Part shown: piece after piece, positions 3,115 through 45,670 of the stretch
How positions within the stretch are numbered: the first letter of the stretch is position 1
Layout of the letters: each line of letters begins with the position of its first letter
Origin: a virus
DNA length: 45,929 bases
Strand: one strand, 5' to 3'
Virus record (IMG/VR): IMGVR_UViG_3300022561_000003
Program-made: the position numbers and the translations under genes
The notes under the pieces: generated by a model
Seen by the model: the letters and a program-made list of their open reading frames with translations, nothing else
Told to the model about the DNA's origin: nothing
Database searches by the model: none

Positions 3115-4134
3115 ATGAATAAAGAATATGTATTAAATAATGAAACTTCAAGAATTGAATTACATTTTAGTAAAGAAGAATACGCAGCACTAGACGGAGT
3201 TACTAAAGCAGAATTAAAAAGTATATGCTTATTTTCTGGAAAATCTCAAGCGTGGGTAAGTAGAACTAAAAGTGGCCATTATAAAATAATTAATTTTGCT
3301 GAAAAATTAGGTTTTGTAAATGGTGGATGCAATGGGGAAATATTAACTCATGAAGAAGTAGCAGAAAATAAGATAATTAAACAGGAAGAGCAAATAGAAA
3401 AATCAAATGCAACATATCCTGAAATAGATATAAATGATATAGAGTCATATTTAGTATCAAAGCAATTAAGTGATAATGAAAATAGTAATGCATTTTTTAG
3501 AAATACACCTATAGATCATCAACATCAGCTACAAGAACTACTACAAAGTGCTAACAATGATATAGCAGAATTAAAGAATTTAGGATGTAATAATTATATA
3601 GAATATAAAGCTAAAACTATTCTCCAGAGCTTCAAGAAAAATTATAGTAATCAATATATAAAAGTATTAACTCAAAAGGGTAATAATCCTTCATGGATGG
3701 TAACAGGGCGTGGAAATATGAATGTAAGTAGATATAATAAGAAACAAGATCAACTTTCTAATATGCAACATCAATTATCAATATTAATAGATGAATACAA
3801 TGCAAAGATTAAAAACTTTAAATATCAAATTAAACATGAGAACGCACAAATTGTAAAAATTGAAATAGAAGAGACTTTAAAAAATGTTACTGAAGTATTG
3901 CTGACTAAAATTAGTAGAGAATTTGATCCAAGTGCTGTAGAAAATATATTTAGTAATCCAAGAAGTGAAATAAAAGGATATAGCTACAATGAAGAGTATT
4001 TCTTATTTAAAAATTGGGGATACTGGAGAATATACAATAAATTAGGGAATGAATTAAATGTAACTACAAGAACTATAAAAACATTAAAAGAAGCTAAAAC
4101 TCACTTGTCATATATAATAAATAATGTAGCATAA
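3115..4134 (+). CDS. hypothetical phage protein (possible DUF3560-like)
   Basis: RBS aaggtgg favours ATG 3115; motifs ELHFSK...AWVSR and PSWMVTGRGN recall DUF3560-type phage/plasmid proteins (weak, from memory). Confidence 0.65.
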   Translation: MNKEYVLNNETSRIELHFSKEEYAALDGVTKAELKSICLFSGKSQAWVSRTKSGHYKIINFAEKLGFVNGGCNGEILTHEEVAENKIIKQEEQIEKSNATYPEIDINDIESYLVSKQLSDNENSNAFFRNTPIDHQHQLQELLQSANNDIAELKNLGCNNYIEYKAKTILQSFKKNYSNQYIKVLTQKGNNPSWMVTGRGNMNVSRYNKKQDQLSNMQHQLSILIDEYNAKIKNFKYQIKHENAQIVKIEIEETLKNVTEVLLTKISREFDPSAVENIFSNPRSEIKGYSYNEEYFLFKNWGYWRIYNKLGNELNVTTRTIKTLKEAKTHLSYIINNVA

Positions 4135-4940: not shown

Positions 4941-5006
4941 ATAACAAGCTTGTAATTATCCCTAAGAAGTAATTCAAATCATCCTGGGACGTTATAAGCT
5001 TGTTAT
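4941..5006 (+). repeat. long imperfect intergenic hairpin
   Basis: ATAACAAGCTTGTAAT..TCCC pairs with GGGA.GTTATAAGCTTGTTAT, with G-U pairs. Confidence 0.7.
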
Positions 5007-5046
5007 AATACATAATAACTAAACAATACTTTAAGGATGTGAATAA

Positions 5047-5199
5047 ATGAAAAGAAAAAACAGGAAACTAAAAAAGCTTAACAAATACACTACAATGAAA
5101 CATAATAGCAGTATGTCTGTAAAAGAATTTTTTATAAAATTATGTGAAGTAGAAGAATCAACTCTGGAATGGTGGGACGATAATTCATTAACAATGTAA
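5047..5199 (+). CDS. hypothetical 50-aa protein
   Basis: RBS aaggatgtg, open frame. Confidence 0.55.
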   Translation: MKRKNRKLKKLNKYTTMKHNSSMSVKEFFIKLCEVEESTLEWWDDNSLTM

Positions 5200-5225
5200 T
5201 AATAATTTATTATGGAGGTTTATTC

Positions 5226-5429
5226 ATGGAGAATTTATCAACTAGGAAATTATATTATGCTAAAGAGAAATGTTATGGTAGTCTTTGTACTTTCATTTTT
5301 TATGGAATATGTAGAATAGATAATACAGAACTTGAAGAATTTACAAACGTATTAAAAGCTCTAGGACTTGACAAAATAATTATAGACAAAGATATTGACA
5401 GCAAAGTTTTTGTCATAGAAGCAAAATAA
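5226..5429 (+). CDS. hypothetical phage protein
   Basis: RBS ggaggt, 67 aa. Confidence 0.7.
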   Translation: MENLSTRKLYYAKEKCYGSLCTFIFYGICRIDNTELEEFTNVLKALGLDKIIIDKDIDSKVFVIEAK

Positions 5430-5447
5430 TAAAAGAGGTGTAATTAA

Positions 5448-5678
5448 ATGAATGATTATAAAGATATTACCGAGGAAGAATTTAAGGATAGTATATTAGT
5501 AGATAAGATAAAATGGTTATGCTCTGCTAAGATAATTGAAGCTATTCCATCGGATAAAAAGAAACATGACTTAAAAAAGATTCTTAAAAAGGAAAGAAGT
5601 AAATATTTAAATGATAAATTTATACTAAAGCAAATTGACTATATAATAAATTATAATAATCTGAAAGAGGTGTATTAA
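5448..5678 (+). CDS. hypothetical phage protein
   Basis: RBS gaggtg, 76 aa. Confidence 0.7.
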   Translation: MNDYKDITEEEFKDSILVDKIKWLCSAKIIEAIPSDKKKHDLKKILKKERSKYLNDKFILKQIDYIINYNNLKEVY

Positions 5679-5858
5679 ATGTGGCATCCAGTAATTGCCC
5701 ATATAGAAAGTGGAACGAGAATTAACAATGCAATTCATGAACTAGAAGAAGCATTATACCAAGAAGACACATTATGTTTTAATATGGATCAAGAAAAAAC
5801 TTCTCAAATTAAATTAGCAATGGAAATATTAAAAGGAAATAGAAATGATTTAATTTAA
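5679..5858 (+). CDS. hypothetical 59-aa protein (MWHPVIAHIE...)
   Basis: RBS gaggtg, abuts previous stop. Confidence 0.65.
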   Translation: MWHPVIAHIESGTRINNAIHELEEALYQEDTLCFNMDQEKTSQIKLAMEILKGNRNDLI

Positions 5859-6066
5859 AATATCCAATAAAAACACGATTTTATAGTATTTAAAAACTTA
5901 CTCTAGAAATTATAGAGGGTTGTTAAATTATAAGTATTTTATTTACTTTAATTGAAACTATTATTTAATTAAAACGTATATTGTATAATATGGGATATAT
6001 AAAGCAATATCTTATAATTTCAACACGTCTGTAATAATTTACAAACAAATTAAAGGAAGTGATTAT

Positions 6067-6171
6067 ATGGAAATGGACGTAGGATTTATAGCTATGATGG
6101 AAGAGGAAAAAAGAAGAAAAGCTAATAAGAAATTAATAGAAATTCAAGAAGAACAAGAAGTCGAGGAATAG
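6067..6171 (+). CDS. small charged 34-aa protein
   Basis: RBS aaggaagtg, MEMDVGFIAMMEEEKRRK... Confidence 0.45.
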   Translation: MEMDVGFIAMMEEEKRRKANKKLIEIQEEQEVEE

Positions 6172-6250
6172 GAAGAATAAAAAATAAATTACCTCTGGCT
6201 TCATTTAAATTATTAAAGTTGGGGGTATATCCTGGGGAGGATATGAAACT

Positions 6251-6484
6251 ATGATAATAGATTTTTTAACTGCTACAAACTATGAGAGTAATTTTAAGAA
6301 GTTAGGCGCAAATAAACAATATCAACATTATGCAATACTTAATCGTATAGATGATGAGCCAGACGAGTTTACACTAAGCATAGATATTGACATAGATGCA
6401 AAAGGCAATGACCATAGCACAATAATTAAGATGCATAGAAACGTAGCTAGAGAGCTTATAACAGATAGTACAGAAAGATTCTAA
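6251..6484 (+). CDS. acidic hypothetical protein, paralog of 21672..21902; antitoxin-position gene
   Basis: RBS gggagg; shares MII..L..YE, ID.D, IIKMH, LITD..E.F with the 21672 protein. Confidence 0.75.
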   Translation: MIIDFLTATNYESNFKKLGANKQYQHYAILNRIDDEPDEFTLSIDIDIDAKGNDHSTIIKMHRNVARELITDSTERF

Positions 6485-6547
6485 TATAAAAAGAGAGTAG
6501 CAAATGTGTGCTATTCTTAACTTAACAATAAAAAGGAGGTGCGAATA

Positions 6548-7648
6548 ATGAGTGAAATTATAATAAGAAGATCTGACATATGGATGGCTAATTTATCAGG
6601 AGATGAAGGAAACGTTTTAAAAGGTATTCATCCAGTATTAATTATAAGTTGTAAGAAATCTAATAATAGTACTACTTTGGTTAATGTTTGCCCTGTGACA
6701 AGCACTTTAAAGAGCAACATTACAAATATACCGATAGGAGCTGAAAGTGGACTCTTGCATGAATCTGTAGTGTTATGTGGTCAAGTACAAACAATAAGTA
6801 AGAAAGATTTATTTAAAAAAGTAGGATTTGCAAAACGTCAACTCATGGATTTAGTAATAAGAACAATAGTAAAACAAATTGAAGGTAAAAATAATGAATT
6901 AAGTATTACACAGAAAGAAAAATTAGATTATATGTTAAAGAGTATTAAGAAATTAATTAGTTTCAAAATTAAATATAATATTATAGATGTTGAAATAGAT
7001 GAGCAAATAGAAAATTCATTTTTAGAAATTAAAGATTATTGTAATTCTATTAATATTGATTACAATGGTTTAGGAAACTTAGAAATATTTAAAATACATC
7101 AAAAATCAAGAGAGAAAATAAGAGTAACGCAATTTAAAAAAGATTATATAACAGCAGTTAAATTGTCTGAGGAATATTTAAAGAGTTTATATGAAATAGA
7201 TTATACTGTATATGGTAATGAAATTTGTTCAGAATTAGAATGGGCATTGTATAATCTTTCTTTAGCAGTAAAGAAACTAGGAGAAATTGAAAGAAGTTAT
7301 AAGTTAGCAAAACAAGCATTAACTTTCAGTACAGAAGAAAATAGTAATAGAATATTAACATACTGGCTAATAGGAGAATGTTGTAACTTAATGGGATCTG
7401 AATATAAAGAAGAAGGAATTAACGTATTTGAGAAATGTATATCTTTTTATAAAAGTGTTGGAGAGAAAAAATATGAAATACTATCACAGTTTAATAAAGC
7501 AAAACTATTAAAAGATATAAATAGCATGGAAGAATTAATTAAAGAATATGAAATGACACAATTTAAAAACGTGTTGCATACATTTGGAGATATGGAAAAT
7601 GATGAAGTTCTTAAAGAATTGAAAATTGAATTAAATAATACTTTCTAA
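6548..7648 (+). CDS. PemK/MazF-family N-terminal domain fused to TPR-like helical domain; putative RRNPP-type peptide receptor
   Basis: N-terminus RRSDIWMANLS..G..HPVLIIS..N....VNVCPVTS...SVVLCGQVQTISK follows the NdoA/MazF pattern; C-terminus has TPR-like helices (WALYNLSLAVKKLGEIERSYKLAKQAL, TYWLIGECCNLMG, EGINVFEKCISFY, SQFNKAKL); RBS aaggaggt favours ATG 6548. Confidence 0.8.
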   Translation: MSEIIIRRSDIWMANLSGDEGNVLKGIHPVLIISCKKSNNSTTLVNVCPVTSTLKSNITNIPIGAESGLLHESVVLCGQVQTISKKDLFKKVGFAKRQLMDLVIRTIVKQIEGKNNELSITQKEKLDYMLKSIKKLISFKIKYNIIDVEIDEQIENSFLEIKDYCNSINIDYNGLGNLEIFKIHQKSREKIRVTQFKKDYITAVKLSEEYLKSLYEIDYTVYGNEICSELEWALYNLSLAVKKLGEIERSYKLAKQALTFSTEENSNRILTYWLIGECCNLMGSEYKEEGINVFEKCISFYKSVGEKKYEILSQFNKAKLLKDINSMEELIKEYEMTQFKNVLHTFGDMENDEVLKELKIELNNTF

Positions 7649-7657
7649 GATTCAAAG

Positions 7658-7690
7658 TGTGGGAGCGGATGTTTTTTAAACTCTCCCACA
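7658..7690 (+). promoter_or_regulatory. hairpin between receptor and peptide gene
   Basis: TGTGGGAG (7658-7665) / CTCCCACA (7683-7690). Confidence 0.55.
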
Positions 7691-7717
7691 AATAAAATAA
7701 TAGGAGGTAATCTCAAG

Positions 7718-7861
7718 ATGAAGATTACAAAACGTACAAAGAACATAGTAATGGCAATGTGTCTTATTGCTATACTAACAGCAGGTGTAAGCACAACTAA
7801 AGGAACAGTTGTTACAGGGGGCACAGTAACAACACAGGGAATAGATCCACCAATAAACTAA
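7718..7861 (+). CDS. putative secreted signalling propeptide, 47 aa (MKITKRTKNIVMAMCLIAILTAGVSTTKGTVVTGGTVTTQGIDPPIN)
   Basis: RBS aggaggt 7702-7708; basic N-region, hydrophobic H-region, polar tail ending GIDPPIN; directly downstream of the TPR protein; missed by ORF track. Confidence 0.8.
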   Translation: MKITKRTKNIVMAMCLIAILTAGVSTTKGTVVTGGTVTTQGIDPPIN

Positions 7862-7873
7862 CCAAGTGCAGTC

Positions 7874-7912
7874 TTAGTCTTTCCTGCAATATCAAAGAAA
7901 GACTAAAATTTT
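7874..7912 (+). terminator. hairpin/terminator after peptide gene
   Basis: TTAGTCTTTC 7874-7883 / GAAAGACTAA 7897-7906, then aatttt. Confidence 0.5.
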
Positions 7913-7928
7913 AAAAGGGGTGAAAAAA

Positions 7929-8246
7929 TTGAATAAAGAAGTGTTGGAGAAATTATGTAAAGAATATGGGTTTTCTTTTTCTATTATGGGTAAATATATT
8001 CAAATTGTAAGTAAGAGAGACACATATTATATATTGGATATGAATCATGAAGGAAGAAGAATTAAATTGTTTCACCAGAATATATATGCAAGCGCTGGAT
8101 TCCACAAACATGGAGAACATGAAAGTCTTAAAAATATATTTGCTAGTATTTTTAGCCATGATAATATCTACAATGTTGGTAGCAGAAACAATAAATTAAC
8201 TAGAATGACAGAATTATTTAATCAACTTCACAACACTCCAGCATAA
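7929..8246 (+). CDS. hypothetical protein (position analogous to the regulated gene downstream of aimP)
   Basis: RBS aaggggtg, TTG start 7929 (alt GTG 7920). Confidence 0.7.
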   Translation: MNKEVLEKLCKEYGFSFSIMGKYIQIVSKRDTYYILDMNHEGRRIKLFHQNIYASAGFHKHGEHESLKNIFASIFSHDNIYNVGSRNNKLTRMTELFNQLHNTPA

Positions 8247-8336
8247 ATAAATAATAATTGTAGCAAACAATCGAATAATAATGTATAATATAAGATAAAG
8301 AGGGCACAATATTAATATACAAGAGGTGAGAACATA

Positions 8337-8519
8337 ATGGAAGATCATTTTCTACTATTCCCAATACTGATTTTAGTAGGTATACTTTATGTAGCATGGT
8401 ACATTATAAAATTGATATGGATTACGTTAGGATTAATATTTATACTAATAAGAAAAATATATCGAAAAATTATGAATAAAAATGTAGAAGGAGTGAATAA
8501 TAACAATGTTATTAGATGA
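8337..8519 (+). CDS. small membrane protein
   Basis: RBS gaggtg; long hydrophobic stretch followed by basic tail. Confidence 0.6.
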   Translation: MEDHFLLFPILILVGILYVAWYIIKLIWITLGLIFILIRKIYRKIMNKNVEGVNNNNVIR

Positions 8520-9390
8520 GTATCTTGAATATCTAAAATCTACAGAAGGTAAGAGCTCTGGAACAATTACACAATATCACAACAGCATGAAGCTATTTAT
8601 GAATTATATGAAAGAAGATAAATACAGCATCACCAGAGAATCAATCAAAAAAATTAAAATATCTGATATTTATGGATTTTTAGCTACAATATCAGAATCT
8701 AATTCAGGAAGCTCCAGAAGAAATAAGATATCAGCATTAAAATCATTCTTTGAGTATTGTAAAGAGATTGAATTAGTAAAGCATAATATAATTGTAGACA
8801 TAAAGAAGCAACCAAAAACTCCAAGACGAATTCCTAAATATTTCAACCTAGATGAATGTAAATTATTAATAAGTTCAGTAGGCAAAAGAAATCTAATTAG
8901 AGATAAAATGATAATAATATTATTTCTATCTACTGGATTAAGATTAACAGAATTAATTAACCTAGATATAAATTGTGTGATTGACAACAACTTAACAATA
9001 ATCGGCAAAGGAAATAAAGAGAGGCCAGTGTATTTGAATCAAAAAATAATAACATTGTTAAAAGAATATCTATTAGAAAGAGGAGAATCAGATTCAAACG
9101 CATTATTCCTTAGTGAGCGAAATAACAGAATTTCTAAGAGTGCAGTACAGAATTTATTAAGAAATGCAATAGACAGAGCTGGATTGAAATTAGAAGGTGA
9201 AACTGACGTCCTAGTGCATGTTTTAAGACACTCGTTTGCTACAAATGAATATCAGAATGGAACAGATATTAGACTCCTCCAGGAAGTGCTAGGACATGAA
9301 GATATAGGAACGACTCAAATTTATACACACGTTAATAAGAAGCAAATGGAAAATCAAGCAGAAAATTCTATAATGAGTAGTATAATATAA
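8506..9390 (+). CDS. XerC/XerD-type tyrosine recombinase
   Basis: All catalytic residues present: TGLRLTEL, GKGNKER, HVLRHSFAT, LGHEDIGTTQIYTH; SAM-like N-terminal domain, 294 aa, no arm-binding domain. Confidence 0.95.
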   Translation: MLLDEYLEYLKSTEGKSSGTITQYHNSMKLFMNYMKEDKYSITRESIKKIKISDIYGFLATISESNSGSSRRNKISALKSFFEYCKEIELVKHNIIVDIKKQPKTPRRIPKYFNLDECKLLISSVGKRNLIRDKMIIILFLSTGLRLTELINLDINCVIDNNLTIIGKGNKERPVYLNQKIITLLKEYLLERGESDSNALFLSERNNRISKSAVQNLLRNAIDRAGLKLEGETDVLVHVLRHSFATNEYQNGTDIRLLQEVLGHEDIGTTQIYTHVNKKQMENQAENSIMSSII

Positions 9391-9448
9391 TGTAAAAAAT
9401 TGGTATAATCAAGTCGAACGAATTTATGTTAATATTACGTAAAATAGA

Positions 9449-9477
9449 TTGACAAAGTAACAATTAAATAATAAAAT
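9449..9477 (+). promoter_or_regulatory. sigma-A promoter with operator-like motif across spacer and -10
   Basis: TTGACA-17-TAAAAT; ACAATTAAATAATAA at 9460. Confidence 0.7.
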
Positions 9478-9500
9478 AATAAAGAGGATGTGTTAATAAA

Positions 9501-10136
9501 ATGAATGAGAAAATAGAATTATTAAAAGAATTAATTGAGAAATCTGAATTAACCGTACAACAAAAGATAAACAAAATCATCCAGACACTAATAAGAACAG
9601 AAGATCCAATTAAAGCTAGAATATTGAGTAATGAGATATTAGATGGTAAATTTGATAAGTTAGAAAATCAAAGTATTTTAAATTTGGTAACAGCATTTAA
9701 TGATAACGAATCAATAGTAGTAAGCAATCAAACAGAATACAATGATGTTAAAGAAGATACCCTATTTAATAAAAATGATTCAAACGAAAACAAAGCAATC
9801 AAGACATTAGAGTATCAATTGAAAGTAATGCAATCTCAGATGGAATCCTTAGAATACAATAATAATAAAAAGATGAAAGAACTAGAAGAATTAAACAATA
9901 AACGAATAGACGAACTAACTAAATCAAATAATGAATTGTCTGGATTAAATAGTAGATTAGTTGCAAGATTAAGTTTAACTAAAAATTCTAAACTGATTGA
10001 AGTATCAGATGAAAGTATTAACGAATTATATATTAGAAACTTAGAAACAGCAGTAACTGAATATGAAGAAGCGTTTATCGTAAAAGGAATAGTTCCAAAG
10101 ACTTATTACAAATTAAATAATAGAGAGGGAGAATAA
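9501..10136 (+). CDS. coiled-coil hypothetical protein
   Basis: 211 aa, heptad-rich LEYQLKVMQSQMESLE...LSGLNSRL. Confidence 0.75.
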   Translation: MNEKIELLKELIEKSELTVQQKINKIIQTLIRTEDPIKARILSNEILDGKFDKLENQSILNLVTAFNDNESIVVSNQTEYNDVKEDTLFNKNDSNENKAIKTLEYQLKVMQSQMESLEYNNNKKMKELEELNNKRIDELTKSNNELSGLNSRLVARLSLTKNSKLIEVSDESINELYIRNLETAVTEYEEAFIVKGIVPKTYYKLNNREGE

Positions 10137-10141
10137 AAATT

Positions 10142-11080
10142 ATGAGAACTCAAAAATATTCTAAATTATATATTACTATTTATGACGAATTAAATAATAA
10201 GGGAAATGTTATTAAAAACATTCTAAAAACTGAAAAGGAATTAGATATTGAATTATTAGATTGGAAAGATGAACAGTTAGTTATTTTCTTAAAGAAATTT
10301 GAATCAATATCTCCAGTAAGTTTAAGAAAAAATTTAACGATATTAAGAGAGTTTGCTAATTATATTTGTAAAGAAGAAAATCTTGAATGTCCTATATTTA
10401 CATTAGAAGAATCTGTTTTTATGAGTTTGATTGATACAGATAAATTGTTATCCGTAACATTATCTTATGAACAGTTTCAGAACATCAGAGGACAGCTAGG
10501 AATGGCAGGTATAGGAGAAACAGTAAACTACAGAGATAAGCTTATTTTTGAACTCGCATGGTTTGGCGTTACTGAAGATGAAATGAGAATGTTAAAAGAG
10601 TCTGATATAGAATATGTTGATAATAAAGGAATGGAAGTTGCTATATTAAATCTAAATACTGGTAAAACTGTAAGAATTGATGATCCAGAAGTTATTGATG
10701 ATATTAAAAAATGTATAGTAACAGATTCAATTACTAGAGTCGCTAAAGATGGCAGATTTAAAACTACTGGATACAGAGATTCAGAGTACCTACTAAGAGC
10801 TGGAAAATCAGGTGGAACATCTCCTAATTCATTCTTTGGTAAACCTGCTACAGCACTAAAAGGAGCTTTTGTTAAACAAGAAATAACTTGTGATGGAATT
10901 AATGTCTTTGATTTGAGCTTAGACGATATTAGGAGGAGCAGACTGGTGCTGTTACTAAATAAAAAGAATGAAGAGTATTTTAACTTTGAAACTGTTGCAG
11001 CAATATATAATCTTAAGACAATTTCTGCGATTAGATGGTACCGAGAAATAGCTGCAATGAAATATCCAGAGGTAAAATAA
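10142..11080 (+). CDS. degenerate tyrosine-recombinase-fold protein, MrpR/YopR-like putative lysogeny repressor
   Basis: YRDKLIFELAWFGVTEDEMRMLKESDI aligns to box I with R->T; LSLDDIRRS aligns to HxxR with H->D; no LGH. Confidence 0.65.
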   Translation: MRTQKYSKLYITIYDELNNKGNVIKNILKTEKELDIELLDWKDEQLVIFLKKFESISPVSLRKNLTILREFANYICKEENLECPIFTLEESVFMSLIDTDKLLSVTLSYEQFQNIRGQLGMAGIGETVNYRDKLIFELAWFGVTEDEMRMLKESDIEYVDNKGMEVAILNLNTGKTVRIDDPEVIDDIKKCIVTDSITRVAKDGRFKTTGYRDSEYLLRAGKSGGTSPNSFFGKPATALKGAFVKQEITCDGINVFDLSLDDIRRSRLVLLLNKKNEEYFNFETVAAIYNLKTISAIRWYREIAAMKYPEVK

Positions 11081-11168
11081 TGAAGCCTGGAACAACACTA
11101 ATATTATTAAGTTTAGTGTTGTTCTTAGTCAGCATCAACAATCAAATAATAATAAGGGATGGGGATAA

Positions 11169-11561
11169 ATGATGAAAGAATTTAATAATAAAGATTTTGT
11201 TAAAACTGAAAAATACGTAGCTATAACAGGAGACAATTTTGACTCAGATAGACAATTTGAAATAGAAGTTGATGGAGTACAAATAACGTTATGTATGGAT
11301 GAACAGAATAGGCTCATTCAGATACTCTCAGCCGATGGAGAAGTTATTAGTAGTAAGAATACCAATGTAGCTAAAAAGTGCCTACAGAGAGTCGTTACAA
11401 CGTCTAGAGAGGCTACATATACCGACAAGCAAGAAAGGTTCTGGTCGTTCTACCTAGATGATATAAGACCTAATTCAAAATGTCCTAAAGTAGATAATTC
11501 CACTATGTATGCGATTCAAGCTTTGGATTGGGAGACAATAAAGTTAGAATTAACCAAATGA
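11169..11561 (+). CDS. hypothetical phage protein
   Basis: 130-aa ORF with purine-rich RBS. Confidence 0.7.
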   Translation: MMKEFNNKDFVKTEKYVAITGDNFDSDRQFEIEVDGVQITLCMDEQNRLIQILSADGEVISSKNTNVAKKCLQRVVTTSREATYTDKQERFWSFYLDDIRPNSKCPKVDNSTMYAIQALDWETIKLELTK

Positions 11562-11575
11562 ATTATATCGGAATA

Positions 11576-11604
11576 TTGACAATTAAATAATAAATTTGTA
11601 GAAT
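11576..11604 (+). promoter_or_regulatory. sigma-A promoter overlapped by operator-like motif
   Basis: TTGACA-17-TAGAAT; motif ACAATTAAATAATAAAT starts inside the -35. Confidence 0.75.
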
Positions 11605-11763
11605 AAATAGTCAAGTAGGAAATTATTGTAAACATTATTATTATATTGTACCGATTGACTATAACAAATTTAGAATATATATTATGTTATAATAAAATAT
11701 AAAGTTTATCAGACGTGCATGGTATAATAAAGAAAATAATTTATATGAAAGAAGGAATTAATA

Positions 11764-11943
11764 ATGGATCACACAATATTAGCAACATATTTTAATGGAG
11801 ATAATTATAGTTTTGATTGGTTAGAAAATGATGAAGATACAGCAGAATGGTTAGATGAAAGTAAAGACAAGTATACTCAGATAGAAATTATTAAAGTTAA
11901 TGTTATGGAAGTAATATATCAGTCTAAAGATATGGAGGAATAA
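11764..11943 (+). CDS. acidic 59-aa protein (MDHTILATYF...)
   Basis: RBS gaagga, open frame, not in ORF track. Confidence 0.6.
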   Translation: MDHTILATYFNGDNYSFDWLENDEDTAEWLDESKDKYTQIEIIKVNVMEVIYQSKDMEE

Positions 11944-11944
11944 T

Positions 11945-12136
11945 ATGAAAAGTATAATTAATTATGTTTCTAATTTTATTAAAATGATAAAAGATTTACC
12001 AGATGAAATGTTATATGTGCAACTAAATAATGCGGGGTTAGTGACTCCGACTGTAAAAATGAGTAATAAGGAGCCATTTCTTACTAAAGAAGAAATTATA
12101 AAAGTTAAAAGTATAAAAAATATAACCATATTATAA
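11945..12136 (+). CDS. hypothetical phage protein
   Basis: RBS ggagg. Confidence 0.65.
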   Translation: MKSIINYVSNFIKMIKDLPDEMLYVQLNNAGLVTPTVKMSNKEPFLTKEEIIKVKSIKNITIL

Positions 12137-21671: not shown

Positions 21672-21902
21672 ATGATTATGATAATAAAAGATCTGGTAGA
21701 ATCTGATTATGAGGAAAAGTATAGTAGGCTAAGTGCAAGTAGACAGTTAAAATATCAAATAATTGACAATGAAATAGAAAAGGAAGATCAGGAATACATA
21801 GTTGCTATTGATATGGATGAAGAGAATGAGGTAGGGCATATCATAAAAATGCACTATGATGATAGAGGATATTTAATTACAGATGGTGCAGAGATGTTCT
21901 AA
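21672..21902 (+). CDS. acidic hypothetical protein, paralog of 6251..6484
   Basis: shared IIKMH and LITD..E.F; RBS aggagg. Confidence 0.75.
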   Translation: MIMIIKDLVESDYEEKYSRLSASRQLKYQIIDNEIEKEDQEYIVAIDMDEENEVGHIIKMHYDDRGYLITDGAEMF

Positions 21903-42337: not shown

Positions 42338-42361
42338 AAATAAAATATGACGGAGGTATTT

Positions 42362-45300
42362 ATGCAAATAGTTAAAAGAGATGGTAGAGAGATAGGGTTT
42401 CAAAAGGGTAAAATTGTTGAAGCAATAGTAAAATCTATGAATGAAACTAAGAAAGGAATAGATGTAGACTTAGCTAATAAAATTTCAGAGTCTATATCTA
42501 AAATAAATAAAGAAAACTTATCTGTAGAAGATATTCAAGATTTAGTTGAACAAAAACTCATGAAGTCCAATCGTAAAGATGTAGCTAAACAATATATATC
42601 TTATAGAAGTGAAAGAACTAGAATGAGAGAAATTAATAATGAAATAAATACAAAGATAAAAAAAATAGTTGCCTGTTCAGATGTTCAAAATGCTAATGCA
42701 AATGTAGATGAACATTCTTTTGGTGGAAGAAAATTTGAAAGTGCTGGAGTAATTCATAAGAAAATAGGATTAGAAATGATGAGACCAGAAACGGCATTAG
42801 CTCATAAAGAAAATAGGGTTTATCAACATGATTTAGATTCTTATGACATAGGAATGCATAATTGTTTGTTTTTAGACATGGAGAGAGTTTTGAATAATGG
42901 ATTTGAAACTAGGAATGGAGATGTAAGACCTGCAAGTTCATATAGTACGGCTTGTCAACTAGTTGCAGTAGCTTTCCAGGTACAAAGTCAAGTGCAATTT
43001 GGAGGTTGTGGATCTGCTCACATTGATTATGATTTAAAACCATTTGTTAAGAAATCATTTATAAAGCACTTTAAGGATGGACTTAAATATATAGACGAAT
43101 TAGAACAATATGAGATTGATAATATAATAGAAACAAATGATGTACAATTATCTAATTTAGAATTAGAACAAAACTTTAAAAAATCATTTAAATATGCCTT
43201 AGAAAAAACAGATAAGGAAGGATTACAAGCATCTCAAGGATTATATCATAATCTGAATACATTAGAATCAAGAGCTGGAAGCCAAGTACCTTTTACTTCA
43301 ATTAACTTTGGAAGAGATAAAACTCCAGAAGGTAGAAAAGTTACAGAATGGATGTTGAAGTCATCAATTGATGGTATAGGTAAGAATCACAGAACAAGTA
43401 TATTCCCTATATCTATATTCCAATATAAAAAAGGTGAAAATGATAAAGTAGGAACTCCTAATTACGATTTAAAAAAACTAGCGATAAAGTCACTTACTAA
43501 GAGAATATATCCTAATATAGTTAACTGTGACTACACTCAAAATATAGAAGATATAAATAGTCCAGATACATCTATGGCAACAATGGGGTGTGTAGATGGA
43601 GAAGAGATAATTACTTATAAATATAAAGACTTATTGTTTATAGAAAGTTTTAAAAGAATGTGGGATAGACTATCTAAAGATTTTGAGGTTAAAGAACAAC
43701 AATTAAATAATAATTTTTATATAGATTTAAATAACGTATTGATTTACGACACGAATAAAGGATTTGTAGACACAAAGAGGATAATCAAAAATCAAGATAA
43801 AGGAGATTGGAACAGAGTTAAATTCTCGAATGGAAGAAGTTTATTAGCTACATCAGATCATCCTTTGCCTATTGAAAAAAAGGGAAGAGTTTTTGTTAAA
43901 GATTTAATAGTTGGAGACAAAATACAAATTAATCAGAATCAATATAGTGAAACTAATATAGAATATTCTCAAGATAAAGCATGGTTACTTGGATTTCTAT
44001 TATGCGATGGTTGTTATGATATGCAACTAAGTTCTTCAATTGCTTTGACCGGTGAGGATGACATAGAGGAAAATTATAGAAGAATATTTAAAGAAATTTA
44101 TGACTTAAATGTAGAAACAGTTGTTTGGAATAGGGGCGCAAGAGGAGATTATAAAGAATTAAAAGTTAGAACCGGAAACTATAAAGCAGTTGAATTAGAG
44201 CTGTTAGAAGTGTTTGGAGGAAAGCAAAAAATATATAGACAAATACCAAACGAAGTTTTTTCATGGAATAGAGAATCTAAATTGTCATTTCTAGCAGGAA
44301 TGATTGATGCAGATGGATATATTAACAGCACTGGACATAGTGGAACAATAGTACAAATAGGTAGTACAAATAAAGAATTAGCATTGCAGACTGCTGCATT
44401 ATCCCAAAGTTTAGGAATACCTACAAAAACTTACTTAAACCATTATACTTCCAAAGATAAAAGTAAAATAAGATATAGAGTTGAGTTTTCTGCGACAATA
44501 GAATTATTAAATTATATGGCTTGTAATAAAAAAATCGACTGTTTTACTAGAGAGGCAAACACAACAAAAACTAATGTTGCAGTAGTTGTATCAGTAGAAA
44601 TGTTAGGTAATTTAAATAAATATAGTTATGACGTTACTACTGAAAGTGATTTCTTTGAAGTTAGTGGAATATGCAACCATAATTGTAGAACGATGATAGG
44701 AGCAGATAGACATGGATTAGGATACTCTAAAATAGGAAGAGGTAATGTAGCTCCTGTAACTATGGATTTACCTAAGATTGGTATTAAACATGGTATATGT
44801 CTTGGAGAAAGAACTGAAGCTGATTTAGAAGGATTTTGGAAAGAATTTGATGAAGTATTGGGAATAGCATCTCAAAGTTTAGTTGATAGATTCTATCATA
44901 TTTGTAGTCAAAATTATAGGTCAGCACCATTTATGTATACAAATGGAACAATAGCAGATTTCGATAAAGTAATAGATAAAGGAATTTATGAAGCTATGAG
45001 ACATGGAACTTTAGCTATGGGATACATTGGAATTGCAGAAATGTGTCAAGCTTTATTTGGTAAAAACCACGCAGAGGATAAAGAAGTTCATAAGTTTGCC
45101 TTAAGTGTAGTAAAATATATCTCTGAATACACTAAGAAGGTAAGTGAGGTATATAATTTAAACTTTAGTTGTTATGCTTCTCCAGCAGAAAATACCTGTA
45201 AAACAATGATGCAAGGACTACAAAAGGAATTTGGAATGATTGAGAATGTTACCTCAAGAGCTTATTTAACTAATTCACATCATATTCCAGTATGGCAAAA

Positions 45301-45670
45301 GGTTTCTATCTTTGAAAAGTTAAATCTTGAAGCTCCATTCTGTCGATATCCTACTGGTGGTTGCATTACATATGTTGAATTAGATAGTGCAATAATTAAA
45401 AATGAGAAGGCAATAGAGGATATAATAGATTATGCTATGTCATTAGATATACCTTACTTAGCTTTTAACTTTCCAATAGATACTTGCTTAGACTGTGGTT
45501 ATCAAGGAGAATTTAATGACAAGTGTTTAGTATGTGGAAGTGCAAATATTCAGCAACTTAGAAGAGTAACAGGGTATTTGACAACAGACTATAAGAATTT
45601 TAATGCAGGCAAAATTGCAGAAGTAGAAGATAGGATAAAACACAGTAAATATACCGATTTTGGAGAATAG
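42362..45670 (+). CDS. nrdD: anaerobic (class III) ribonucleoside-triphosphate reductase with ATP cone, intein-interrupted
   Basis: IVKRDG ATP cone, HDLD, HNC, SRAGSQVPF, MG|CRT, PAE, CLDC..CLVC, glycyl radical RRVTGYL; RBS ggagg favours ATG 42362. Confidence 0.97.
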   Translation: MQIVKRDGREIGFQKGKIVEAIVKSMNETKKGIDVDLANKISESISKINKENLSVEDIQDLVEQKLMKSNRKDVAKQYISYRSERTRMREINNEINTKIKKIVACSDVQNANANVDEHSFGGRKFESAGVIHKKIGLEMMRPETALAHKENRVYQHDLDSYDIGMHNCLFLDMERVLNNGFETRNGDVRPASSYSTACQLVAVAFQVQSQVQFGGCGSAHIDYDLKPFVKKSFIKHFKDGLKYIDELEQYEIDNIIETNDVQLSNLELEQNFKKSFKYALEKTDKEGLQASQGLYHNLNTLESRAGSQVPFTSINFGRDKTPEGRKVTEWMLKSSIDGIGKNHRTSIFPISIFQYKKGENDKVGTPNYDLKKLAIKSLTKRIYPNIVNCDYTQNIEDINSPDTSMATMGCVDGEEIITYKYKDLLFIESFKRMWDRLSKDFEVKEQQLNNNFYIDLNNVLIYDTNKGFVDTKRIIKNQDKGDWNRVKFSNGRSLLATSDHPLPIEKKGRVFVKDLIVGDKIQINQNQYSETNIEYSQDKAWLLGFLLCDGCYDMQLSSSIALTGEDDIEENYRRIFKEIYDLNVETVVWNRGARGDYKELKVRTGNYKAVELELLEVFGGKQKIYRQIPNEVFSWNRESKLSFLAGMIDADGYINSTGHSGTIVQIGSTNKELALQTAALSQSLGIPTKTYLNHYTSKDKSKIRYRVEFSATIELLNYMACNKKIDCFTREANTTKTNVAVVVSVEMLGNLNKYSYDVTTESDFFEVSGICNHNCRTMIGADRHGLGYSKIGRGNVAPVTMDLPKIGIKHGICLGERTEADLEGFWKEFDEVLGIASQSLVDRFYHICSQNYRSAPFMYTNGTIADFDKVIDKGIYEAMRHGTLAMGYIGIAEMCQALFGKNHAEDKEVHKFALSVVKYISEYTKKVSEVYNLNFSCYASPAENTCKTMMQGLQKEFGMIENVTSRAYLTNSHHIPVWQKVSIFEKLNLEAPFCRYPTGGCITYVELDSAIIKNEKAIEDIIDYAMSLDIPYLAFNFPIDTCLDCGYQGEFNDKCLVCGSANIQQLRRVTGYLTTDYKNFNAGKIAEVEDRIKHSKYTDFGE
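43589..44683 (+). mobile_element. 365-aa intein with LAGLIDADG homing endonuclease
   Basis: Starts CVDGEE after TMG, block B ATSDHP, LLGFLLCDG and FLAGMIDADG, ends YDVTT...HN before C(+1)RT. Confidence 0.95.

Follow-up and report, generated by a model that had tools for sequence, protein, structure and literature searches.

The window analysed here is a 45,929-nucleotide stretch of viral DNA (IMG/VR virus record IMGVR_UViG_3300022561_000003), in which a gene for a fusion of a MazF-like domain with a tetratricopeptide repeat (TPR) domain (P0001, 366 amino acids; 6548..7648, + strand, ribosome-binding site AGGAGG) is followed by a gene for a putatively secreted propeptide of 47 amino acids (P0002; 7718..7861, + strand, ribosome-binding site AGGAGG at 7702-7707). 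We consider it reasonably probable, at roughly 0.6, that a peptide from the second gene gates the MazF-fold domain of the first by way of the TPR domain, in which case the pair would follow the logic of the RRNPP and arbitrium systems with a new output domain. This reading is carried by the MazF, TPR and peptide genes, which appear from their sequences to stay together in large clostridial phages or phage-plasmids, whether fused or split; by the short C-terminal proline motif of the propeptide (here IDPPIN), which seems to be the part under selection; and by a prediction that seats that motif in the groove on the concave face of the TPR domain, against the residues most conserved in the family. 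A more specific version is that a secreted proline peptide of five to seven residues, of the IDPPIN type, directly switches a phage MazF ribonuclease (RNase) through a fused or partnered TPR domain, and so lets large clostridial phage-plasmids set lysogeny, plasmid-state maintenance or dormancy by how dense their carriers are; this we hold tentatively, at somewhat less than even odds.

The propeptide and its conserved tail

The open reading frame (ORF) of the propeptide starts exactly 69 base pairs (bp) past the stop codon of the receptor gene, and its product has an n-region with four positive and no negative charges, a hydrophobic 12-mer with a Kyte-Doolittle value of 2.88, and the tail GIDPPIN. 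The original prediction, made from the letters of the window, had proposed a MazF-TPR receptor with a cognate secreted peptide, and its description of this ORF by spacing, strong ribosome-binding site, Sec-type N-terminus and tail is correct in every detail that can be checked. The product thus bears a predicted export signal, and the predicted mature signal, from the conserved tail and the predicted contacts described below, is GIDPPIN with the core IDPPIN (7838..7858, + strand). A lipoprotein reading of the product was rejected, as there is no lipobox and the cysteine is unconserved.

A word-indexed search gave nine full-length relatives of the receptor (309-385 amino acids, 37-99% identity), all of them with the PF02452 domain. 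Each of the 11 relatives first examined has a small downstream ORF with a proline tail. In the nine full-length relatives this ORF comes next on the same strand, opening with an MK(I/K)TK-type start and a hydrophobic core and closing, after a variable middle, with the conserved motif; the MKITK N-terminus and hydrophobic core of the propeptide in the window are common to the relatives. The tail is IDPPGN in loci L001, L002, L003/4 and L008, IFPPGN in L006/7, IDPPVR in L005, IDPPGH in L011 (a relative from IMG/VR), VDPPGS in the split locus L009, VNAPGT in the fused locus L010, and IDPPGG in the split locus L012 of Clostridium estertheticum CF002; the consensus over 11 loci is [IV]-[DNF]-[PA]-P-[GIV]-x. 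The motif occurs twice in L001, three times in L005 (IDSPVR and two copies of IDPPVR) and three times in L019, and such tandem repeats within one propeptide resemble the multi-copy precursors of known pheromones. Its codons vary synonymously among loci (ATA/ATT, CCA/CCT/CCG, GGN, AAC/AAT), and the two repeats of L001 differ synonymously at five of the six motif codons, which shows that selection acts on the peptide and not on the DNA.

To count such ORFs strictly, we required at least two Lys or Arg and no Asp or Glu in residues 2-9, a 12-mer with a Kyte-Doolittle value of at least 2.1, and a length of 25-75 amino acids. Over the ORFs of the window and the fetched loci, a small ORF of this kind is next downstream of 15 of 20 MazF-associated TPR genes, whereas 5 of the 85 other large ORFs have one (Fisher p 3e-10), and three of the remaining five MazF-associated TPR genes still have a looser signal-peptide-like ORF. 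In the homologues examined, the adjacent propeptide that had been predicted is present as an ORF with a conserved tail, with two exceptions. L025 is the sole locus with no small signal-peptide ORF found downstream of the TPR gene. In L012 the peptide ORF (3594-3725 of NZ_JAHLDM010000017.1) keeps its ribosome-binding site and MIDPPGG tail and has lost the start codon and n-region; the TPR gene has a small deletion near its C-terminus as well, and the module there is probably a decaying copy. A search of IMG/VR for the pattern IDPPGN followed by a stop gave ten matches, none in a signal-peptide ORF and none with a TPR gene upstream, so the motif alone is non-diagnostic, and the IDPPGN subgroup is absent from IMG/VR.

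Fused and split forms of the receptor

When the profile of the C-terminal domain was run against 1.84 billion representatives, it recovered 39 proteins, four of them fused and about 30 stand-alone (180-230 amino acids); in a sample of 388 Clostridiaceae genomes, at least nine have strong matches. Split loci with readable context consist of a PemK gene of about 180 amino acids (MazF and linker), then the TPR gene, then an ORF of 42-59 amino acids, the stand-alone TPR proteins in these loci being 178-217 amino acids long. The presence of fused and split architectures side by side is a link of the Rosetta-stone type between MazF and TPR. The one-protein switch of the original prediction does not strictly describe the family, however, as many relatives encode MazF and TPR in two neighbouring genes and a conserved small gene stands upstream in the antitoxin position.

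In the more diverged loci, the tail consists of three [IM]DPPM units (L019), or ends in ...SPIVWSIKQP(Q/T)VSK (L016/17), ...IEPPLPHGVTT (L021) or ...VILPPH (L022). L021 and L022 (genomes G054 and G144) have TPR and proline-tail peptide genes with no adjacent MazF, and upstream of the TPR gene there is an integrase fragment or an HNH protein, so the pair of sensor and peptide may exist on its own or with other partners. Judged by gene order and sequence, the unit of MazF (with linker), TPR and exported peptide persists through fusion and fission, down to 20-30% identity between TPR domains.

The TPR domain

As a single sequence, the C-terminal stretch of about 190 residues gives only sub-threshold matches to Pfam TPR families, and detectors based on TPR hidden Markov models probably miss the receptor for this reason. 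A profile of 37 family members, by comparison, matches consensus TPR proteins at 6.5e-30 and NprR at about 1e-6; NprR is the only natural bacterial protein among the better PDB matches of the profile, which also include the TPRs of Bardet-Biedl proteins, O-GlcNAc transferase and CTR9. Folded alone with the family alignment in AlphaFold2 (AF2), the domain (residues ~174-366; 7067..7645, + strand) forms about ten helices, with a mean predicted local distance difference test (pLDDT) value of 87.8 and a predicted template modelling (pTM) score of 0.83. The structural comparison program VIA-align places apo NprR first (5dbk_A, Z 18.0, root-mean-square deviation (rmsd) 4.1 Å, 181 residues aligned), and the further RRNPP proteins are NprR-NprX (4gpk_F, Z 17.3), RapI (15.4), PlcR-PapR (15.3), phi3T Rap (15.0) and pLS20 Rap (14.4). 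The TPR-like helical pairs that had been noticed in the C-terminal half are thus borne out by profile and by model, and in size and shape the modelled TPR domain resembles the sensor domains of RRNPP receptors.

None of the searches gave a sequence match to AimR, a Foldseek search of BFVD with the C-terminal domain had no match at E <= 0.001 and none resembling AimR, and tblastn of the TPR domain against plasmids gave zero matches. Clostridial chromosomal regulators of about 435 amino acids, with an Xre-type helix-turn-helix (HTH) and TPRs, match the TPR profile at 1e-9 to 1e-13 (hhalign 93%, E 2.5e-7, over 96 columns only). These proteins have no downstream signal-peptide ORF under the strict criteria, and we do not count their weak match as evidence of RRNPP descent.

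The predicted complex of receptor and peptide

One complex prediction was made, of the TPR domain and the whole 47-residue propeptide, each with its own alignment. The interface score ipSAE (interaction prediction score from aligned errors) is 0.70 (runs of 0.70, 0.70 and 0.79), against 0.32 for the best control; in the calibration of the tool, which applies only roughly with self-supplied alignments, 58 of the 80 solved complexes reach that mark, as do 2 of the 110 mismatched pairs. The runs share at least 43% of their contacts, and the pLDDT of the partner is about 50. Confident contacts on the propeptide side are limited to residues 40-47 (QGIDPPIN), so the C-terminal octamer is predicted to dock in the TPR groove, in agreement with the peptide binding that had been proposed. 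Predicted contacts on the receptor side run along the concave face and include W273, F315, N316, K319, D348 and E361 (full-length numbering). Among 37 diverse members, the predicted contact positions have an entropy of 1.90 bits, compared with 2.41 bits elsewhere (Mann-Whitney p 0.0012), and N316 (N152 of the domain) is the only column that is at least 90% conserved across these members, which matches the conserved DPP core of the peptides.

Points that weigh against peptide control

Several results weigh against peptide control of the MazF-fold domain, and the first concerns specificity. The original prediction had asked whether the propeptides of homologues co-vary with their receptors. Tail distance is correlated with distance at the contact residues (r 0.70, Mantel p 0.0004), but the correlation with non-contact distance is r 0.66, and contact-specific co-variation is non-significant (partial Mantel r 0.33, p 0.11, n 11). 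Positions 195-196 (QF here, RG in the IDPPGN group) contact the variable fifth residue of the motif in the model, a pairing that is suggestive and nothing more. The DPPG core is also so conserved that any "private" pherotypes would be confined to one or two positions, and in distant members the motif is internal with 3-8 residues after it (in L046 and L048, 7-8 residues come after IDPPGG or IDPPVPG), so that extra processing would be needed. The complex score, for its part, may echo the model's memory of solved RRNPP-peptide complexes.

The structural likeness to RRNPP sensors is not specific either. LGN, with a VIA-align Z of 17.4, is effectively tied with NprR, generic TPRs lie within about 1 Z, and Foldseek of the C-terminal domain puts the peptide-binding TPRs of KLC and MamA first, followed by LGN. 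Of the RRNPP-type TPR in the original prediction, the part that stands is NprR as the best structural match, while RRNPP descent is not separable from generic TPR likeness. Finally, nearly all TPR-linked MazFs have His in place of the catalytic Arg, and with this change the domain may cut RNA weakly or not at all; a separate small gene upstream may also be the true regulator of MazF.

Small upstream genes and the toxin-antitoxin alternative

The window has, in the antitoxin position, a gene for an acidic protein of 77 amino acids (6251..6484, + strand), which we call the type B upstream partner and regard as a candidate accessory part. A 75% identical copy lies directly upstream of the split MazF gene of L046 (1637-1870), an unrelated metagenome contig whose TPR is only about 30% identical to that of the window, and a paralogue with 38% identity is encoded at 21678-21899 of the window, in the replication region some 15 kb away. 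The protein matches no Pfam, NCBIfam or PADLOC family. It may inhibit MazF, by analogy with AimX and YosL, the two phage antitoxins of phi3T.

Most other relatives have an unrelated ORF in this slot, encoding a basic helical protein of 57-63 amino acids (type A) that ends in ...ELExYKAA. It is found at 2506-2685 in L001, 3756-3932 in L002, 3759-3932 in L003, 3755-3940 in L005, 3794-3985 in L006, 3732-3911 in L008 and 2248-2430 in L012, and also in L017 and L019, where MazF-TPR and peptide have diverged strongly. The type A protein, which has no NCBIfam or PADLOC match, may be a fourth component of the module. Among the upstream small genes there is no recognisable antitoxin of the MazE type.

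One alternative is that the module is an addiction or abortive-infection system of the phage-plasmid, with MazF as the toxin. The antitoxin role, or the sensing of a protein trigger (compare CapRel, below), would fall to the TPR domain (in cis, or as the downstream gene in split forms), the upstream small protein or both, and the exported small protein would be a co-inherited membrane or secreted accessory, for instance for superinfection exclusion, and not the ligand of the TPR domain. Such a system would fit the conserved small gene upstream in most loci, the position of the TPR gene of split forms in the slot of a downstream antitoxin with stop and start codons abutting, the non-significant contact-specific co-variation of the peptide, and the surroundings, which suggest plasmid maintenance (tyrosine recombinases and an MrpR-like gene, with Alp7A/ParM-like genes in L005 and L017). 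It has more difficulty with the peptide gene, which stays beside the TPR gene at 20-30% identity, in fused and split loci alike, and in L021 and L022 even without MazF. The part of the peptide under selection is a short motif at the C-terminus, found as tandem repeats in three loci, a pattern typical of a processed signal rather than a membrane protein. In the complex prediction this tail docks in the conserved TPR groove, with controls far lower, and PADLOC matches no defence family for the receptor, TPR, upstream or downstream genes. We regard a toxin-antitoxin system of this sort as unlikely, with something like one chance in six in its favour.

The MazF half of the receptor

Residues 7-109 of the receptor (6566..6874, + strand) match the Pfam family PF02452 (PemK_toxin) with an E-value of 9.1e-20 and 71 bits (cut-off 23.1), phrog_1936, "MazF-like growth inhibitor", at 1.7e-20, and solved MazF/EndoA chains at 1.5e-7. 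In the AF2 model of the full-length receptor (pLDDT 79.6), Foldseek superimposes the MazF part on Staphylococcus aureus and Bacillus subtilis MazF with target-normalised template modelling scores (TMt) of 0.80-0.86 and an rmsd of 1.7-2.0 Å, which agrees with the MazF/NdoA pattern first seen in the initial ~110 residues. Foldseek with the full-length model gave MazF structures only, and the C-terminal domain was therefore folded separately, as described above. The N-terminal domain is of the PF02452 PemK/MazF type and not a Rap-type helical effector; the receptor has no HTH match, and neither a signal peptide nor a transmembrane segment was found in its sequence. MazF and TPR are joined by a two-helix linker (residues ~113-170; 6884..7057, + strand; AF2 helices at 120-142 and 148-167), which goes with the MazF half in split forms, is missing from the short fused forms P0011 and L011, and is present in CST027 of phage c-st, which has no TPR domain.

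We take the catalytic residues of MazF to be an Arg (R25 in B. subtilis, R29 in Escherichia coli) and a Thr (T48 and T52, respectively). In the alignment with B. subtilis EndoA, GVRPVLVI corresponds to GIHPVLII of the receptor, so that His28 sits where the catalytic Arg R25 aligns, while Thr51 is retained; H28, P29, T51 and S52 are invariant among nine members. The split or distant TPR-linked forms L009, L012, L046, P0014, P0048 and L016-L020 likewise have His here. Arg is retained in L025, a split MazF linked to a TPR gene, in c-st CST027 and in two solved MazFs. Of the proposal that the MazF domain is itself the effector, then, the PemK/MazF fold is borne out and the RNase activity is uncertain.

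The substitution opens a further alternative, in which signalling between peptide and TPR is real but the MazF fold is a binding module and not an RNase, one that captures host MazE or MazF, for example, or binds RNA but leaves it uncut, with density-dependent manipulation of the host toxin-antitoxin system as the output. The invariance of His28 in nine close relatives, its presence in the split and distant forms, and the retention of Arg where TPR and peptide are absent (c-st CST027) and in the two solved MazFs all speak for such a module. There is also a precedent, since proteins of phi3T act through binding to host MazF (bioRxiv 10.1101/2023.04.27.537455). Against it, Thr51 and the remainder of the PemK core are conserved, and Arg is retained in the TPR-linked split MazF of L025. 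Moreover, a change from Arg to His need not abolish catalysis, His being a common general acid or base in RNases. On balance we think a pure binding module quite unlikely, at perhaps one chance in seven. A third possibility, that the small ORF encodes the precursor of a secreted, proline-rich peptide, bacteriocin-like or modified, for instance, which acts on other cells, with MazF-TPR as its regulator or immunity-type partner, would account for the signal peptide, the conserved proline-rich core and the tandem cores, but is very improbable given that no modification-enzyme, exporter or immunity gene is conserved alongside, that the cores have just 5-7 residues, and that docking in the TPR groove is predicted.

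Comparison with known systems

The closest parallel to a peptide-controlled MazF-fold receptor is arbitrium, of the SPbeta/phi3T-like Bacillus phages, where a phage gene for a TPR receptor is likewise followed by a small gene for an exported propeptide, the signal lies in the C-terminal ~6 residues, and variants differ at few positions. The differences are substantial. With its N-terminal HTH, AimR controls the transcription of aimX, and the MazF involved is that of the host; the receptor here lacks an HTH and has the MazF fold in its own chain or encoded beside it, and the TPR domain here is also only about half the size of that of AimR. In phi3T, arbitrium has been tied to host MazF as a downstream lever of the decision, and high signal leaves host MazF active, an activity that is required for lysogenisation and restrains induction (bioRxiv 10.1101/2023.04.27.537455).

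Among the RRNPP systems of Bacillus, NprR-NprX of the Bacillus cereus group shares a peptide gene directly downstream and provides the best structural match to the TPR domain, but NprR is an HTH with nine TPRs (~420 amino acids), and the match is tied with the eukaryotic TPRs of LGN and KLC. The Rap-Phr systems, including Rap of phi3T and pLS20, are alike in having a receptor with no DNA-binding domain whose activity is controlled by the peptide at the protein level, in their occurrence on phages and plasmids, in Phr precursors that can hold several copies of the peptide, and in structure (Z 14.4-15.4). They are unlike the present system in that the Rap effector is a three-helix bundle that binds or dephosphorylates response regulators and not an RNase fold.

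Two systems with a controlled toxin are also worth comparing. CapRel(SJ46) is a host defence protein with an N-terminal toxin and a C-terminal sensor, whose ligand is the capsid protein of the invading phage. Toxin and regulatory domain are similarly in one chain, and ligand binding at the C-terminus decides activity, but the presumed ligand here is a self-encoded secreted peptide and the carrier is a phage. The extracellular death factor (EDF) of E. coli is a pentapeptide from a metabolic enzyme, for which direct binding to MazF has been proposed and is debated; there too a short extracellular peptide modulates MazF according to cell density, but EDF has no dedicated receptor domain or propeptide gene.

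A homologous MazF with the same helical extension is encoded by CST027 (phrog_1936 / phrog_35650) of c-st, a related large clostridial plasmid-prophage. Unlike the receptor of the window, CST027 keeps the catalytic Arg, has no TPR domain and is not followed by a propeptide ORF. The next gene, CST028, was considered as a split-off TPR and was ruled out (hhalign probability 0.1%).

Full-text literature searches gave no description of a MazF-RRNPP or MazF-TPR receptor, returning only the work on arbitrium and MazEF and unrelated papers, in line with the original prediction, which knew of no described MazF-RRNPP receptor; the RRNPP_detector papers, the papers on RRNPPA evolution and a 2026 review of phage communication mention neither MazF nor PemK. 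To our knowledge, the characterised RRNPP and arbitrium receptors all act via DNA binding or, in the case of Rap, via binding of response regulators. If peptide control of the MazF-fold domain is real and the domain cuts RNA, this receptor would be the first in peptide quorum sensing whose output is an enzymatic toxin acting after transcription, and an RNase-fold toxin would be a new class of output for peptide quorum sensing. It would also tie phage communication directly to toxin-antitoxin biology, for which phi3T needs AimX and host MazEF, and it would provide a compact ligand-controlled RNase module with possible use as a tool. The phages and phage-plasmids with this family are large, clostridial and related to c-st and phiCD211, and how they control lysogeny is poorly understood.

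A possible mechanism

If the MazF-fold domain is under peptide control, the propeptide would be exported and trimmed to a peptide of five to seven residues with the IDPPIN core, which would build up with the density of phage-carrying cells. It would then be re-imported by Opp-type permeases, which re-import other RRNPP peptides, and bound by the TPR domain. Binding would alter the oligomeric or steric state of the attached or associated MazF dimer and thereby switch RNA cleavage, while the upstream small protein may act as a buffer or antitoxin.

As to the sign, we have a weak preference (about 55:45) for a peptide that turns MazF on, because high signal in phi3T leaves MazF active and because fused toxin-sensor proteins are usually released through ligand binding. 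High signal would then lead to cleavage of phage and host transcripts and favour lysogeny or a quiet plasmid state, in effect collapsing into one protein the phi3T route of high AimP, no AimX, active host MazF and lysogeny. The opposite sign is nearly as likely, in which case the peptide would be a diffusible antitoxin, as in the inhibition of Rap or AimR.

The intergenic hairpin and the downstream gene

Between the receptor stop codon and the ribosome-binding site of the peptide gene there is a hairpin, GTGGGAG...CTCCCAC (7659..7689, + strand), with an RNA folding energy of -22.3 kcal/mol and a z-score of -2.99. Its 7-bp stem is maintained in ten loci, with compensatory changes on both sides in four of the seven pairs and a loop of (G)TTAAAC. 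It has no T-run and hence is not a canonical terminator, and a terminator scan of 5800-8600 found none; an outer pairing would hide the Shine-Dalgarno sequence of the peptide gene. The hairpin could possibly set the ratio of receptor to peptide, serve in mRNA processing, or be a target of cleavage.

Directly after the peptide gene is a gene for 108 amino acids (7920-8246) with no family match, which occupies the slot that aimX has in arbitrium. It is kept in L001-L003 only (...KRDTYY...HQN...H..G.H...HD...) and is absent from L005, L006, L009 and L010.

Source record and genomic neighbourhood

The IMG/VR record that contains the window is 125.8 kb long, linear and an estimated 76% complete, with a G+C content of 28%. 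Megablast of 5000-12000 against phages gave zero matches. The window encodes an NAD ligase, DnaB, Sak4 and a polymerase of the PolIII-alpha type, for which the nearest relatives, at about 34%, are the polymerases of c-st, phiCD211 and phiCDIF1296T, large clostridial phages with plasmid-like persistence.

On the 3' side of the module in the window there is a tyrosine recombinase followed by a second, degenerate one, an order that is kept in L001-L004. The first is an intact XerC/D-like recombinase (8506-9390); after it come a coiled-coil-like ORF of 211 amino acids and a protein of 312 amino acids (10142-11080), which matches only an integrase PHROG (1e-9) and has no Pfam integrase domain. The order of recombinase, 211-residue ORF and 312-residue protein is maintained in L001-L004 and in L019, and the block from 8506 to 11080 is probably one for multimer resolution or plasmid maintenance. 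An MrpR-like gene is also near the module in the window, and in L005 and L017 the module adjoins actin-like partition genes (Alp7A/ParM-like).

Elsewhere in the window (42347-45670), we found a gene for the anaerobic ribonucleotide reductase NrdD, with an ATP-cone and a glycyl-radical domain, which is split by an intein. The intein carries a LAGLIDADG homing endonuclease, recognised from Pfam matches at residues ~450-779.

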